Assembly (NCBI GenBank): GCA_963828255.1
Contig: CAWHDZ010000007.1
Span: 192,001-256,000 of the forward strand
Direction: 5' to 3'
DNA length: 64,000 nt
From: an uncultured delta proteobacterium
GTDB lineage: Bacteria > Myxococcota > Myxococcia > Myxococcales > Anaeromyxobacteraceae
This document shows, piece after piece, positions 15,001-54,000 of this stretch. Numbering within the stretch: position 1 is the stretch's first letter; every line of letters begins with the position of its first letter. Made by a program: the position numbers.

Positions 15001-18000
15001 TCCGCGGCCCGCCCGCCCGGCCGTTCGCCGCCTCAGCGCGGGAAGCTGCGCGGTGCCACGTCCAGGAAGCCCTCGCCGTCGAGCGCCTCCAGGAAGGCGA
15101 CCAGGGCATCCACCTGCCCGTCCGTGAGGTGGAGCGGCTTCATCTCCGGAGACAGCCAGGGGTTGCCGACGCCTCCCCGATCGTAGAGCAGCACCACCTC
15201 GCGCAGCGTGGCGACCGACCCGTCGTGCATGTAGGGAGCCCGGCGCGAGACGTCGCGGAGCGTGGGGGTCTTGAAGGCTCCGGTGTCGGCCGCCTTTCCG
15301 GTCACCTTGGACCGTCCCGGATCGGCGAAGCCCGAGGCGGGATCGGCGCCGGTCGGGGGCTGCCGCCACCCCACGCCCAGGTTGTGGAACCGGGAGTCGG
15401 TCAGGTTCGCACCCAGGTGGCACTGGTTGCAGGCGGCCTTCCCGAAGAAGAGCCGGAAGCCCGCCTTCTGCCTCTCGTCGAGCGCCTTCGGGTCGCCCGC
15501 GTCCCAGCGGTCGTAGGCCGAGTTCCCCGACATGCGGGTGGCCTCGTAGGAGGCGATGGCCTCGGCGACGCGGTCCACGTCGATCCGGTCGTCGCCGAAG
15601 GCCTCGGCGAAGTAGCTCCGGTACCCCCGGATGGCGCGGACGGCCGACTCCACGCTGGCGTGGGTCATCCCCATCTCGATCGGGTTCGCCATGGGACCCT
15701 TGGCCTGCTCGACGAGCGAACCCGCCCGGCCGTCCCAGAACCAGACCGGGTAGATGGGGAAGGCGGCGTTGAGCACCGGCGGCGCCTTGCGGTTCCCCTT
15801 CTGCCCTCCCACCCCGGTGGACACCGGGTCCCGCTCGCTGAAGCCGGTCTCCGGCTCGTGGCAGGAGGCGCAGGAGACCGTGCCGTCCTTCGAGAGGCGC
15901 GGGTCGTAGAAGAGCCAGCGCCCCAGCCGCACCTTCTCCGGGGTGACCCGCGGGGTGGTGAGGTCGGAGAGCTCGGCGGCCACGCCCAGCGGCGCGGCGG
16001 GGAGCGGCCGCACCGGGTTCTCGACCTCCCAGTCGGGGGTGGCCGGCGGAGCCAGCGCGGTGCGCGCCGTCTCCTGGGTCGAGCAAGATGCGGCGAGGAG
16101 GAGGGCGGGAAGGGCGAGGGTGGCTTGGACGGGGCGCACGGGACGGCTCCGGATTCTGGGCGCCTCGGAACCCTTCCCGGGCGCCCGGGCTCCAACCTCC
16201 GTATCATCTGGAAGGGAGCGTGGGAATGGACGTCACCGGCATCTGGAAGCGGCTCTGGAAGTCCCCCTGGCGGGCGGCGCTCTTCGCGGGCGTGGGCGCG
16301 CTCGTGGGGATCGCCTACTACGAGCTCATCGGCTGCCGCTCCGGCGGAACCTGCGCCATCACCTCGTCGGCCTGGCGCAGCGCCGCCTACTTCGGCCTGG
16401 TGGCCGCGGTGGTGGGGTTCCCCGGCCGGGCGCCCGAGAAGCGCCCCGACCAGGGATGACGCCGCACCCTCCGGGGTGAGCCGGCTACCACCTCTCCGAT
16501 CCGTGGCAGCTGTTGGCGCACGTCCGGGTCTGACCGGTCGTGCAGCCCACGAGCGACGCGACGTTGTTGCACCTGTAGCCGGCCTGCGTTCCCAGGTCCG
16601 TCCTGGTGTTGTTGTGGAAGGGCGCGACCGTGGCCGCGCTGGTGAAGCCCGTCGGGTGGCACTTGTCGCAGCGCAGGTTCCTGTGGTCGCTGATGGTGTG
16701 CTTGCCCGTGGTGGGTGGGTCGCCGTGGCAGCCGGTGCAGCCTCCGCCGTCGGCCTTCCCGTTCACGTGGCCGCCGCCCTGCTTGATGGTGCCGTTGGCG
16801 TTCACCGACTGCGGGTGACACTGGAAGCAGCTCACCGCGGTGGGCGTCCCGGTGTAGGTGGGGTGGCCGGTGGGCGGCATGGCGTGGCAGGCCGTGCAGG
16901 CGAGGGGCGCCGTGCTCGACCAGACCGCTGTGGCGTTCGATCCCGACACCACGCCGAGCTTGAAGTTGCCGTGGCAGTAGGTGGCCGAGCAGCCGGCCGT
17001 CACCGGGTCGAACGTGGGAGCCGCACCCCCGGTCCTCGCCTGCGTCCCGAAGACCACCGGGGACGGTGGCGGAGCGGTGGCGTGGGCCGAGTCGGTCGGC
17101 ACCGGGTGGCATCCCGAGCAGGCGATGGGCGGCATGAGGTAGCTCGCCGTCGTGGGGTTCGCGTGGCCCGTGTGGGCTCCCACCGCGTAGGACGGGGCGC
17201 CGGCCGGAGCGACCGGAGGGGCGGCGGCGAGATTCAAGTCGGTGCCGGCGAGGTTGCCCTTGCGGGCCGCGTCGCCGTGGCAGGTGGTGCACCCCACCGC
17301 CGAGGTGTCGTTCAGCCCGTTCAGGTGGCCGCGGGCGGTCAGGTTCATGGTGCCGTTCGCGTTCACGGCCCTGGGGTGGCAGATGGCGCAGGAGGCTGCG
17401 GTGACGGGCGCCACGACCGCCACGTGGCCGGTCGGGGGCATGCCGTGGCAGGAGGTGCAGGTCATCGCGGCGGTGCTGGTCCAGGTGGGCGTGGCGTTCC
17501 CGCCGGTGACGGCGCCGAAGGCGAAGTTGCCGTGGCAGTAGGTTGCCGCGCACCCCAGGGTTCCCGCGGTGAAGGTGGGGGCCGCGCCGCCGGTCCGGGC
17601 CAGCGCCCCGAAGACCACCTTCTGCGCCGGGGGGCTGGTGGCGTGGGTCGAGTTCCCGGGTACCACGTGGCATTCCGAGCAGGAGATCGGTCCCATGAGC
17701 GCGGTGGCCGCGGTGGGGTTCAAGTGTCCCAGGTGTGCGCCGACGACGGTGGAGGACGCGTTGGGCGGCGCAACGGGGGGGGCCGAGGTCAAGTGGATGT
17801 CCACGCCGGCCAGGTTGCCCGTGCGGGTGGCGTCGCCGTGGCAACTCGTGCAGCCCATCGGAGAGGTGTCGGCAAGCCCGTTCAGGTGCCCCCTGTCCAC
17901 GAGGTTCAGCGAACCGTTGGCGTTGAAGGCCTTCGGGTGACAGCCCGCGCAGGAAGCGGAGGTGGCCGGCGCCGAGACCGGGACGTGATCCGGCGGCGGC

Positions 18001-51000: not shown

Positions 51001-54000
51001 CAGCTGGCCGTGGCGGCGACGAACGGGTGGGGCGCCGGAGGCGGGCTGCCGTGGCAGCTTCCGCAGGTCACTTCCACGCTCCCGCCGGTCCAGAGCGGGC
51101 GGTTGTGGGTGGCTCCACCGAGGGTGGCGCCATGGCAATAGTTGGTGCAGGTGAGGCCGGTCGGGTCGAAGGCGGGGGCGGCGCCGCCGGTCGAGGCGAG
51201 AGGGCCCCAGGCGAGGTCGAGGGCGCCGCTGGGGTGCGTGCCCTGGCCAGGAGTGGCGTGGCATTCGGTGCAGGCCATGGCGATGCGCAGCGAGCCCGCG
51301 TTCAGGTGGGCCTGGTGGGCGCCGACGCCGGCGGAGGTGGTGGCGCTGCTGCCCGTGGTGTCCTTGGGCGGCGCGGCGGCGAGATCGGGATTGAGCGCGG
51401 TGGCGACCCGGGTCGCGTCGCCGTGGCAGGAGGAGCAGGAAATCGCGGCGACGTCCACGCTGCCGTTCACGTGGGTCGACGCGTTGACGGAGGTCGAGGT
51501 GTAGCCGGTGTGGCACGAGGCGCAGTCGGAGCTCTGGGTGTGGGGCGCGGAGGGCGGGACGCCGTGGCAGGTGCCGCAGCTCGAGGCGGCCGGGTTGGTC
51601 CAGGTCGGCGTGTAGCCGGCGTTGCCGCCGGGGAAGGCGCCGTGGCAGTAGACGTTGGAGCAGGTCGCGCCGCTCCAGGACGGCGTGGCTCCGCCGGTCC
51701 CGGCGACGGTCCCGAACGCGATCTCGACCGACCCGTTCGAGTGGGTGTTGCTGGTGGGGACGGCGTGGCACTCGGTGCAGGCGGTGGCGTTGCCGTCCTT
51801 GAGGTGGAGGGCGTGCGCGCCCACCGCGCGGGTGGTCGTGGCGGACTCGCCCTTCGAGCCCGTGGGCGGCGCGGCGGAGTTGCGGGGGTTGAGCGTCGTG
51901 TCGGCGCGGGCCGGATCGCCGTGGCAGGAGGTGCAGGTCATGTTCGCGACGTCCACCTTGCCGTCCACGTGGGTGGCGAGGTTCACCGTGGTCGCGGTGT
52001 AGCCGGTGTGGCAGGTTCCGCAGTTGGAGGCCACGCCCACGTCCGGGTGGGGAGCGGCGGGAGGCAGGCCATGGCAGGTGCCGCAGGAGGTTGCGCGGGC
52101 CTGGGTCCAGACGGGCGCATTGGTCGAGGAGCCCCCGGCGAAGCCGCCGTGGCAGTAGGACGCCGAGCAGGAGGAGCCGTTCCAGGCGGGGACCGCTCCG
52201 CCGGTGGTTGCGAGCGTTCCGAAAGCGAGGTCCACCATTCCGTTGGCGTGGGCAGCGGTCGTGGGGACGGTGTGGCACTCGGCGCAAGCGACCGCCGGGC
52301 CGATCGTTCCGCCCTGGAGGTGGAGCTGGTGGGCCCCCACGGCGCGGGCAGTCACGTCACTTTCGCCTCTGGTTCCTTTGGGGGGAGCCGACGGGAGCAT
52401 CGGGTTCGTGGAGGTCGCCACGCGGGTCGCGTCACCGTGGCAAAGGGTGCAAGCTTTGCTTCCGCCGCCGGCCCCTCCGTCCGTCCCCTTCGAGGCCATT
52501 GGGCGTGGGTCGGAGCAACCTGAAACGAAGGCTACGCAAACCCCTAGAATCAGGGCGCTAACGAAGCCATGGGTGCCACTTGACCGCAATCCCGACATGA
52601 ACCCTCCAGAGCCCAAAAACCTACACCGCAGGAATTGCGCTTCCTTTTGTGTAGGATGATGTACCGTGTGCACGGGACAGGCCAGCGTTTGACTCCGATG
52701 GACTAAATGTTTGATTTCTCATCTTGACCCGACGCAATGGGGGAGGGCTTCTCGATGCCCCCGCGCGGGCTCCCGCCGCCCTCTTGACACCCAGAGTGAA
52801 TGCCGCGGTTCTTGGACCAGGGCGCGAAGGAGGAAACATCTCCTCGCAATCGCTTCCTCCGCGGGGCGCGACTTGGCTATGATGAGGTCGCCACGCGCGG
52901 CTGTCCCGCGCCGGGCGGCACCTCTGAAGGAGTCGATCGTGACGCAAGACGAACGCCTGGCGAAGCGAGATGCGCTGCGGTCGGAGATCGTGAAGCTGGA
53001 GGAGTCGATCCGCGTCCTGCTGGAGCAGGAGGAGGAGCTCCTCCGCGAGTGCTCCCACACCTACGCGGGCGGCAAGAGCGCGCTCGTGGGTGGGCGGGTG
53101 AAGGTCTGCGTCCACTGCGGCCGATCGGTCCAGGGCAAGGACGAGAAGCTCTGGGGCTAGCCACCCCGTGGCCACCCTCCATCCGTTCCGGGCGCTGCGT
53201 CCGTCGCGCGACAACGCGGTCCGCGTCGCCGCGCCCCCCTACGACGTCGTGAACACGCACGAGGCGCGCGAGATCGCCCGGGGCAACCCGGACAGCTACC
53301 TCCACGTCTCCCGCCCCGAGATAGACCTCCCCGAGGGCACCGACGACCACGCCGACGCGGTCTATGCGCGCGGGGCACGGAACCTTTCCGACTTCCGGGA
53401 ACGGGGCGTGCTGCGCCCCGACGTCGAGCCCCACTTCTACGTCTACGCGCAGAAGATGGGCGCCCACCGTCAGGTGGGGCTGGTGGCCTGCGCCTCCGTG
53501 GCCGAGTACGACGCCGACCTCGTCAAGAAGCACGAGAAGACCCGGGCCGACAAGGAGGACGACCGCACCCGCCACATCGACGAGATGGGTGCGCACGACG
53601 AGCCGGTCTTCCTGACCTACCGCGCCTCGAGCGAGATCGACGCCGCGGTCGCCGGGGTGATGGAGGGCGCGCCCGAGTACGACATGACCACCCAGGACGC
53701 CGTCGAGCACCGGCTCTGGGTGGCGGGCGGGGAGGCCAGCGCCCGCATCGCAGCGCTCTTCCGGTCGGTTCCCGCCCTCTACGTGGCCGACGGTCACCAC
53801 CGCTCGGCGGCCGCCTCCCGTGTCCACGCGCTGCGCAAGGGCAAGCCGGGCGAGCACGACCGCTTCCTCGCGGTGGTCTTCCCGCACGACCAGATGCAGA
53901 TCCTGGCTTACAACCGCGTGGTCCGGGACACGAAGGGGCGAAGGCCCGCCGAGCTCCGGGCCGCGCTCGAGCAGGTGTTCAACCTCTCGCCCGCCGACCG

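Follow-up and report, generated by a model that had tools for sequence, protein, structure and literature searches.

The window (the 64,000-nt stretch of DNA analyzed here) contains a block of six lipoprotein cytochrome genes, into which a ResB-CcsA-lipoprotein triple is inserted (Table 1). The earlier note had described seven c cytochromes with about 240 haem motifs; after revision, the six genes encode 276 motifs (221 CxxCH, 15 CX3CH, and 40 CX4CH). Its counts for the single ORFs were reproduced (49/3/8, 37/1/9, 25/2/4, 14/1/3, and 11/1/2 CxxCH/CX3CH/CX4CH), the remaining two (45/4/6 and 14/1/3) when counted from the called starts. The assignment to the GSu_C4xC__C2xCH family was confirmed, since all seven pieces scanned match TIGR01904 with 81 to 277 bits (cut-off, 27). 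The motifs of the largest protein far exceed chance (200 shuffles: mean 0.7/0.6/0.5 and maximum 4/5/3 CxxCH/CX3CH/CX4CH).

Table 1. Features of the cytochrome block and their positions in the window
Feature	Position	Strand	Remarks
Di-haem cytochrome c peroxidase/MauG-like lipoprotein	15033..16139	-	PF03150; end of cluster, beyond the block delimited in the earlier note
Lipoprotein cytochrome, 1749 aa, 47 motifs (37/1/9)	16485..21734	-	Nine five-haem modules of 187 aa each; ends in a canonical CX3CH
Lipoprotein cytochrome, 1009 aa, 27 motifs (21/1/5)	21863..24899	-	Single gene, interrupted by one additional base near 23923
Lipoprotein cytochrome, 618 aa, 14 motifs (11/1/2)	25086..26942	-	
Lipoprotein cytochrome, 18 motifs (14/1/3)	27035..29119	-	Canonical CX3CH end
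172-aa lipoprotein, ARC6-IMS/NTF2-like fold	29211..29729	-	Start overlaps ccsA stop; conserved; missed in the earlier note
CcsA, 270 aa, accessory clade	29729..30541	-	PF01578, E 8e-29
ResB/CcsB, 403 aa, accessory clade	30551..31762	-	PF05140, 28.2 bits (cut-off, 24.6)
Giant lipoprotein cytochrome, 2479 aa, 60 motifs (49/3/8)	31845..39284	-	Ten five-haem modules plus C-terminal domain (CTD); ATG at 39284, lipobox
Terminal His-displaced motif C-G-C-x4-H of the 2479-aa giant	31848..31871	-	
Giant lipoprotein cytochrome, 4351 aa, 110 motifs (89 CxxCH, 8 CX3CH, 13 CX4CH)	39534..52598	-	20 five-haem modules plus 10-haem CTD
10-haem CTD of the 4351-aa giant	39534..41390	-	100% identical over 618 aa to the CTD of the 31845..39284 gene
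Terminal His-displaced motif C-G-C-x4-H, last residues of the 4351-aa giant	39537..39560	-	Outside the canonical haem motifs

The signal peptides reported as missing from two giants (g00615 and g00616) reflect calling errors. The former starts at the ATG listed in Table 1, and the latter forms the 3' half of a gene whose start lies at 52598; a lipobox is present in all six cytochromes of the block. This upstream gene, broken here by four 1-nt indels (net 0) at about 49133, 48943, 47320, and 46558, unites g00619, g00616, and two uncalled pieces in one 4351-aa gene. It is colinear with contig C8 of genome G062, another species, over 13,030 nt (82.7% identity), where the counterpart also has 110 motifs and has its own breaks at other places. 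Since a second species carries a counterpart, the 110-motif protein is confirmed. The 3' 3.2 kb of the 2479-aa giant are 98.5% identical to this upstream gene. The extra base in the 1009-aa gene is absent from the contigs of two of four sequencing runs, and the orthologues in G064 and G059 (995 to 1002 aa) are intact. The ORF listed for the 18-motif cytochrome probably begins about 75 nt before the true start. The MauG-like gene occupies the same cluster position in G057, G059, G062, G063, G064, G076, and G087.

The repeat unit of the block is a five-haem module (CxxCH, CxxCH, CX3-4CH, CxxCH, CxxCH), shared with GSu_C4xC__C2xCH cytochromes (TIGR01904, PF09698) such as OmcA/OmcG/OmcH and Gmet_0571, which have been predicted to form long single-chain wires (PMC11492766). 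Set against these known proteins, the 4351-aa giant carries 20 modules in one chain. It belongs to the top class of multihaem cytochromes but is no record, the largest counts that we found in print being 112 (Paludibaculum MAG, PMC11495043) and 113 (Methanoperedens, PMC7327174). The number of His residues per motif is 2.04 to 2.23 if CX4CH is counted and 2.46 to 2.59 if it is not; the lower range would fit bis-His haems, at CX4CH too, although it does not prove them.

As the earlier note stated, the ResB/CcsA pair lies between the giants and is a third System II copy, two other ResB loci being present in the genome. CcsA is one of four PF01578 gene products; the fourth gene (contig C19) is solitary and adjoins a hemA-like gene. 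In ResB, the transmembrane residue His133 is invariant in 63 rows, and in a 26-row CcsA alignment His130, His225, and His263 are invariant, as are W195, G201, W204, W206, D207, and E210 of the WWD motif. All four conserved His residues of System II (one in CcsB and three in CcsA) are thus present and, judged by position, are the putative TM-His and P-His. The WWD motif and the four His residues (see the feature list in PMC6299221) mark the pair as a predicted System II cytochrome c synthase, with predicted haem export and attachment activity. The window CcsA scores below the housekeeping equivalog TIGR03144 (143.7 bits; cut-off, 187.6). In a quick tree, 74 of 111 rows form one group (SH-aLRT 99) that includes this CcsA and the extra pairs of G109 and G121; the other three CcsA proteins of the genome fall outside it. 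The 172-aa gene accompanies ResB/CcsA when the pair moves to other loci, and the model of its product (pLDDT 88) matches the PARC6/ARC6 IMS domain in Foldseek (E 4e-7).

Such pairs are commoner than a count of ResB orthologues in 3 of 40 genomes had implied: CcsA of at least 55% identity occurs in 21 of 91 other family genomes. The extra pair, present besides the housekeeping system, is co-oriented with multihaem cytochrome genes, and the linkage of the accessory clade to cytochrome genes recurs across phyla. Around the four orthologues that are closest among those with long flanks (CcsA, 93% identity), no cytochrome was found within the 5 to 40 kb read on each side.

The two CTD-bearing giants end in a His-displaced motif, whose cysteines are, in the 4351-aa protein, the only ones beyond the haem motifs and the signal peptide. 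Across 34 CTD rows, C611, C613, and H618 are conserved in 79%, 97%, and 88%, respectively. The CTD has relatives in 1052 cluster representatives (E≤1e-30). Among the best 150, 135 end in the displaced motif, 9 carry CH within their last 45 residues, and 6 show neither of these two forms. The spacing is loose, with 1 to 14 residues between the cysteines; 38 of 134 tails have CxC spacing and 17 a single Cys. Tail type follows the CcsA subclade, CxC going with CcsA of at least 55% identity. In a client of G191, Met replaces the terminal His, a swap typical of haem ligands. A 14/0/4 cytochrome of G109 that lacks the CTD and directly precedes the accessory pair ends in C-x3-C-x2-H. Distant CTD homologues have a canonical CX3CH at this place and occur also without the system (G032, G088), and in some neighbours of accessory pairs (G082, G003) the last Cys is not followed by any His. 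No solved structure related to the CTD was found; its model (low pLDDT, 56) gave no Foldseek match at E≤0.001 and VIA-align Z scores of 3.5 and 3.4 against OmcS and MtrA. We found no published account of the displaced motif.

The tail rule, C-xn-C-x(2-8)-H, was formulated after the alignments had been viewed. Displaced tails were detected in 1 of 60 cytochromes from accessory-free genomes and in 58 of 173 from the others, where positive loci had been chosen by CcsA/CTD and negative loci by TIGR01904, and related genomes are not independent. The sole exception is from G035, which is 74% complete and has the radical SAM gene described below as well.

Contig C3 of the same genome carries two partner genes, for a BchE-like B12 radical SAM enzyme and for a membrane protein of 118 aa in which two His residues are conserved. 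Among 92 family genomes, the radical SAM gene was found in 48 of 51 with accessory CcsA and in 4 of 41 without it; in a Geobacterales sample the figures were 67 of 70 and 0 of 51. In 10 of the 48, the identity of the best match reaches only about 40%, which three accessory-free genomes show as well. The CTD was present in 34 of 51 versus 1 of 41 genomes (the other 17 gave no match with a single-sequence query), and TIGR01904 in 50 of 51 versus 32 of 41. The accessory system tracks the CTD with its displaced motif, the NTF2-like lipoprotein, the radical SAM enzyme, and the small membrane protein. The G062 orthologue of the enzyme (96% identical to the C3 copy) scored best against BchE (TIGR02026; 386.2 bits, next family 153), below the cut-off of 481.35, and the enzyme is 35 to 36% identical to annotated bchE. 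Like BchE, it has B12-binding and radical SAM domains with CxxxCxxC; unlike bchE, its gene lies, in the loci read, beside haem-export genes and not photosynthesis genes.

Extra ResB/ResC pairs are known from Geobacter sulfurreducens (GSU0703-0705, GSU2888-2891, GSU2880/2881.1) and G. metallireducens (Gmet_0571-0601) (Aklujkar et al. 2009, PMC2700814). The earlier note had proposed a dedicated maturation pair; an accessory synthase tied to a cytochrome class is supported by the single clade and its repeated linkage across phyla, but the idea is not new, since dedicated pairs were already proposed for Geobacter in 2009 (PMC2700814, section 12, Table S5). The 2009 study names neither a substrate rule nor a terminal motif nor a role for the radical SAM enzyme ('remain to be determined'). 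The Geobacter clusters resemble the window in that ResB, CcsA, and a small conserved gene lie beside large CX4CH-rich cytochromes, and the 172-aa gene is the positional and sequence counterpart of their 'conserved hypothetical' genes. Loci of G109 and G121 that have the Geobacter-type gene order possess same-clade CcsA, 172-aa homologues (profile matches beside pairs of this type, E 1e-14 to 1e-18), cytochromes with a displaced-tail CTD, and a radical SAM enzyme of 54% identity. The single clade in the quick tree (SH-aLRT 99) shows common descent of the window CcsA and that of the Geobacter-type accessory pairs, which also share the small gene. The systems differ in that Geobacter-type clients have 7 to 35 haems and the window clients 60 and 110, and in that the radical SAM and small membrane genes of the window genome lie on another contig.

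A further parallel is found in Wolinella succinogenes, where, according to PMC12285233, the System II lyases CcsA1 and NrfI serve CX15CH and CXXCK, respectively, each being an additional CcsBA-type enzyme that handles a single non-standard site in an otherwise ordinary multihaem protein. These lyases are fused CcsBA proteins and the motif ligand directly follows the second Cys, whereas in the window clients the His is 2 to 8 residues away; moreover, three further proteins accompany the window ResB/CcsA.

In our preferred model, the six lipid-anchored, bis-His multihaem cytochromes most likely act as single-chain electron wires at the cell surface, and their ordinary motifs, including CX4CH, would be served by housekeeping CcsBA enzymes. 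In vitro, CcsBA works only if the two thiols and the adjacent His are all present (PMC8112865), and an ordinary CcsBA should reject C-xn-C-x(2-8)-H because no His directly follows the second Cys. Cytochromes whose last cysteines form this motif would be the clients of a five-gene accessory system, of which the triple would be the periplasm-facing part and the two C3 genes the remainder. The radical SAM enzyme probably alters haem in the cytoplasm, and the system most likely exports the haem and then attaches it at the terminal site. Each CTD giant would thereby gain a single extra haem of a special kind at the end most remote from its lipid anchor. That a five-gene system adds an extra, probably modified haem at the displaced-His motif is our best explanation, to which we give roughly an even chance. 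The wider proposal is more tentative: an undescribed type of c-type haem attachment, in which a BchE-like enzyme makes a modified haem that a five-protein accessory System II exports and links to C-xn-C-x(2-8)-H at the tip of surface cytochromes of up to 110 haems, may exist in Myxococcota, Geobacterales, Nitrospirota, Acidobacteriota, Actinomycetota, and others.

Rather unlikely, yet the strongest competitor, is that the terminal cysteines form a disulfide, as in a haem site minus its His, and that the system serves canonical CxxCH motifs inside the CTD (e.g., with a modified haem) or recognizes the CTD fold. A disulfide is conceivable because 25 of 62 CX4CH cytochromes that lack the CTD have unpaired cysteines near the C terminus. 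Furthermore, the CTD tracks the system as closely as the tail does, its 18 non-motif His residues conserved in at least 76% of the 34 rows exceed the need of ten haems, and, according to PMC12285233, the odd motif alone was insufficient for the special Wolinella lyases. However, a disulfide is impossible for single-Cys tails and would be awkward at CxC spacing, the CTD-less cytochrome of G109 has a displaced tail, and tail type goes with the CcsA subclade.

We regard as improbable that the triple merely boosts capacity, as an additional synthase without specificity, expressed together with giants of high haem demand: giants of 44 to 61 motifs exist without it (G005, G006, G030), 7-haem clients exist, the triple is retained at 93% identity where it is unlinked from all cytochromes, and the radical SAM link would be left unexplained. 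Slightly less credible still, the radical SAM enzyme could modify the apoprotein before export (e.g., a terminal Cys or nearby residue), the accessory CcsBA then recognizing the modified peptide and attaching normal haem b. The tail is the feature common to the clients, and B12 radical SAM families acting on peptides do score 105 to 114 bits, but BchE, a tetrapyrrole enzyme, scores 386, and the two-His membrane protein that travels with the enzyme would suit haem hand-over.

The earlier note's lyase for the CX4CH (or CX3CH) motifs of mega-cytochromes is very unlikely and largely refuted on genomic grounds: although CX4CH-rich giants flank the pair in the window as well as in G057, G076, and G052, and the CX15CH and CXXCK lyases offer a precedent, CX4CH modules (TIGR01904) occur in 32 of the 41 family genomes without the clade, including the complete G001, G002, and G006, 99 of the 150 best CTD relatives lack CX4CH, and accessory-free genomes have CX3CH too. 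Nor is a specificity for size supported, since some clients carry only seven haems and the complete G006 has giants of 2092 (46/0/12), 1776, and 1668 aa but no more than three PF01578 genes, every one of which groups with the other three of the window genome.

The purpose of the extra Geobacter pairs was left open in 2009; the client signature and the partner enzyme make this question directly testable in a harmless, genetically tractable model, and one family member (Gmet_0571) already has a deletion phenotype, slower interspecies electron transfer to Methanosarcina (PMC10989804). For engineering, the lesson runs opposite to that of the earlier note: CX4CH modules probably need no special lyase, but the terminal domain may need the five genes. 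If the model is true, annotation would have missed a haem site, perhaps a haem type, at the functional end of extracellular electron wires; the wider proposal would bring in a haem cofactor and a binding motif that are both new, the motif being one that a count of CxxCH overlooks. The distribution of the accessory system suggests that the production of such wires includes a step not yet described.

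The block was found to consist of six cytochrome genes with 276 motifs, all six encoding lipoboxes. An earlier note had counted seven cytochromes with about 240 motifs, two of the giants without called signal peptides; its motif counts per open reading frame were reproduced, and the number of motifs is far above chance. The window corresponds to C7:192001-256000 of a genome that comprises 4.3 Mb in 40 contigs with a GC content of about 71%, and near ResB relatives are labeled Anaeromyxobacteraceae. In the largest gene, motifs listed by frame form one unbroken series through four frame changes, each being one base lost or gained relative to the other repeat copies, with a net change of zero. 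Read through with X, this gene encodes 4,351 aa with 89 CxxCH, 8 CX3CH and 13 CX4CH motifs. Its counterpart in another species of the same genus (G062) is colinear over 13,030 nt at 82.7%, also with 110 motifs; it is in frame at the four break sites and has its own breaks at different ones. The counterpart in G057 is an intact frame of 3,902 aa with 94 motifs. Since G062 is colinear and the G057 frame is unbroken, we take the repeats as real and regard consensus errors as the most likely cause of the breaks. Colinearity with G062 along the whole length rules out an assembly artefact as the source of the repeats, and programmed frameshifting is ruled out by the frame kept in G062 at all four sites and broken elsewhere. 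The single 110-motif gene, confirmed by a second species, is new here; bigger counts, 112 (PMC11495043) and 113 (PMC7327174), appear in the available text of two papers.

The cytochrome at 24899-21863 is likewise one gene, its extra base being missing from the contigs of two of the four runs compared, a comparison that used contigs of related strains and covered window positions 21800-33000. A genome-wide tally of 765 frameshifts in 622 of 3,605 genes was discarded because this caller also reported 14 within 75 kb of the complete genome G049, many at gene junctions. Alignment to intact genes of relatives gave six frame switches in 49.8 kb (39 genes), an order of magnitude only, with one site entered twice and three stemming from a single weak alignment.

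Across the six cytochromes, the ratio of His to motifs is 2.04-2.23 and the mass per haem 4.3-5.0 kDa, the latter being the range given for pure electron-transfer proteins in the available part of PMC7096707. The repeat unit comprises five haems, with CX4CH or CX3CH at the middle site, and the two largest proteins carry in addition one identical 10-haem C-terminal domain (CTD). Scaled from a 27-haem protein modelled at 350 angstrom (PMC11492766, available part), which probably belongs to the same family, the 110-haem protein would be roughly 140 nm long. The 3' 3.2 kb of both CTD giants share 98.5% identity, which suggests a recent duplication or gene conversion. Structure prediction for the CTD gave a low-confidence model with no usable match in fold searches; its sequence had only weak, generic cytochrome matches in the PDB, and the Atlas returned generic paired-CXXCH clusters. 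According to the accessible text of PMC10989804, a strain lacking Gmet_0571 grows more slowly with Methanosarcina; judged by gene order in the Geobacterales genome G121, Gmet_0571 would be a CTD protein.

Features of the window and of the loci compared with it
Feature	Location	Strand	Remark
110-motif cytochrome	39534..52598	-	4351 aa; ends in CTD
60-motif cytochrome	31845..39284	-	2479 aa; ends in CTD
CTD	31845-33701		18 non-motif His and three Met kept in at least 76% of 34 CTD rows; exceeds need of ten bis-His haems
GC-rich hairpins	31795-31844; 39484-39533		identical; after stop codon of both CTD giants
Accessory ResB	30551..31762	-	
Accessory CcsA	29729..30541	-	
Lipoprotein	29211..29729	-	
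DUF222/HNH gene	13530-14594		apparently frameshifted; weak IscB-family score, under cut-off
Frameshifted tyrosine integrase and replication-relaxation gene	54315-57183		just upstream of cluster; edge of integrated element
DUF1254/DUF1214 pair; CopG-like and AbiEi-antitoxin-like genes	57906-62530		patch of low GC (57.5% between 58 and 60 kb)
118-aa membrane protein and BchE-like B12 radical SAM gene	G000:C3:200663-202709		same genome, outside window; triple that comes next in G059, G062, G063 and G064 absent
Second cytochrome cluster	G000:C27:168789-188690		same genome; 42-CxxCH protein, two CX4CH cytochromes (CxxCH/CX3CH/CX4CH 25/2/4 and about 16/2/3), weak CTD homologue; all ends canonical; no CcsA nearby
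NHL/PKD protein (900-1000 aa) and five-haem cytochrome	L050:1920-5656 (G004)		upstream of many CTD giants; 12 or more other loci
Two CX4CH cytochromes	L219 (G033:C7:289056-297113)		end in contracted C-x-C-H motif
Accessory CcsA and client	L182 (G191:C93)		Geobacterales; window's own CcsA subclade; CxC-tailed client ending in Met

No tRNA was found in the window. The NHL/PKD protein and the five-haem cytochrome of relatives had no tblastn match in the genome. An ExtEFG-like porin was considered for the former and ruled out by its NHL/PKD identity.

The third gene of the accessory triple overlaps the end of ccsA. Its 172-aa product is a lipoprotein of ARC6-IMS/NTF2-like fold, whose closest structural match is PARC6, solved in complex with PDV1, of which the bound part is presumably a C-terminal peptide. 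The accessory ResB and CcsA retain the WWD motif and the four His described as CcsB/CcsA features in the available text of PMC6299221. A quick-method tree with 111 CcsA rows puts the window's CcsA inside a 74-row clade (SH-aLRT 99). Outside it are the other three CcsA-family proteins of the genome and every one from the complete genomes G001, G002 and G006; inside it are three extra copies each from the Geobacterales genomes G109 and G121, as well as copies from Nitrospirota, Acidobacteriota, Actinomycetota, Lentisphaerota and Bacillota. Among the matches listed in a scan of genome contigs, most were housekeeping CcsA. The consulted parts of Aklujkar et al. 2009 (PMC2700814) report extra pairs, with "conserved hypothetical" and radical SAM genes among them, and propose that each pair serves the cytochromes encoded close to it; Table S5 of that paper agrees gene for gene with the loci of G109 and G121. 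Because of this, both the arrangement and the idea of dedication were already known; the earlier observation holds, was miscounted in part, and concerns a variant of that arrangement. The locus in G191 is a hint that the cassette may have been transferred between phyla.

The earlier note had read the pair as a maturation machine dedicated to giant cytochromes with variant motifs, and had itself granted that specificity for the motif was not supported. Our sample of 92 family genomes included 51 with an accessory CcsA (48 and three found later) and 41 in which none was found. The three were G033, at first taken as accessory-free because its accessory CcsA is frameshifted, and, likewise reassigned, G023 and G029; of 31 matches, a tree was used to place the top 12 plus the G033:C7 fragment, and score to judge the others. 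TIGR01904 modules were present in 50 of the 51 genomes with and in 32 of the 41 without accessory CcsA, and in the complete genome G006, with its three PF01578 genes, there are giants that carry 12, 9 and 4 CX4CH motifs. Among the best 150 of 1,052 CTD representatives, 99 lack CX4CH. We conclude that CX4CH is not the client feature of the accessory synthase: a lyase specific for this motif is rejected on genomic grounds, given CX4CH cytochromes in genomes without accessory CcsA, and this refutation is new here. In the closest long-flanked orthologues of the accessory CcsA (93%; G059, G062, G063 and G064), the triple has a radical SAM gene on one side and a small gene on the other; the flanks read contain no cytochrome, and the giants are on other contigs. 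The triple is absent from the corresponding site on contig C3 of the window's genome; its position is labile.

A different signature follows the accessory genes. The CTD occurs in 34 of the 51 accessory-positive versus 1 of the 41 accessory-free genomes, the exception being G035 (74% complete). In the 110-motif protein, the sole Cys outside the motifs and the signal peptide form a terminal C-G-C, with a His four residues on; the form in relatives is C-xn-C-x(2-8)-H. By a fixed rule, this displaced tail was seen once among 60 cytochromes of 17 genomes without accessory CcsA versus 58 times among 173 from the rest, identical tails being collapsed and off-frame tails filtered by codon bias, at the loss of some true ones. 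The same best 150 CTD representatives include 135 with the displaced tail, 9 with CH within the last 45 residues and 6 with neither. CxC tails pair with CcsA proteins of at least 55% identity and wider Cys spacing with other subclades, and a G109 cytochrome without CTD, immediately before the accessory pair, has the same displaced ending. These displaced-tail and CTD proteins are probably the clients of the accessory system.

In weak CTD homologues a canonical CX3CH stands at the corresponding terminal place, and therefore the motif looks like a haem site after loss of the adjacent His. In known haem motifs, His or Lys always directly follows the second Cys, according to the available part of PMC11492766, and our literature search, whose coverage was partial (most subscription journals lay outside), did not find a His-displaced terminal motif. 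Peptides in which Ala, Met or Lys replaced the His received no haem from purified CcsBA (PMC8112865, available part), a finding that supplies a reason for a special enzyme; in the G191 tail, Met replaces His. The contracted C-x-C-H ends at L219 resemble the CKCH site known from anammox bacteria. A disulfide between the terminal Cys is the chief rival reading. It is favored by free Cys in 25 of 62 non-CTD tails, including those of three of the window's smaller cytochromes, and by the loose Cys spacing in tails. We give haem at the terminal motif an even chance.

The accessory system has travelling partners, a B12 radical SAM enzyme with BchE as nearest family and a membrane protein of 116-118 aa in which two His are conserved. 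The former was detected in 48 of 51 accessory-positive versus 4 of 41 accessory-free family genomes, in raw counts that ignore kinship; the three positives without it are 70-84% complete, and matches are only about 40% identical in 10 of the 48 and in three of the four. In a Geobacterales sample, it was present in 67 of 70 genomes with and 0 of 51 without accessory CcsA, and the gene lies near accessory CcsA at loci in several phyla. Because both states occur within five genera of the family, the association is not that of one lineage alone. The literature search, again partial in its coverage of subscription journals, found no role for the radical SAM partner.

Anatomy, clade, co-occurrence and motif distribution are established; the following division of labor is proposed. 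Ordinary sites would be loaded by the housekeeping CcsBA. The radical SAM enzyme, which looks cytoplasmic from its sequence start, would alter haem, although a modified terminal haem is on balance doubtful. The small membrane protein and the accessory CcsBA would move the altered haem out, the NTF2-like lipoprotein may assist in presenting the tail, as the PARC6/PDV1 match suggests, and the haem would be fixed to the terminal Cys, the displaced His serving as its ligand. The N-terminal lipid anchor would place this special haem at the outer tip. Also new here is the client signature, which makes the function of the accessory synthase testable.
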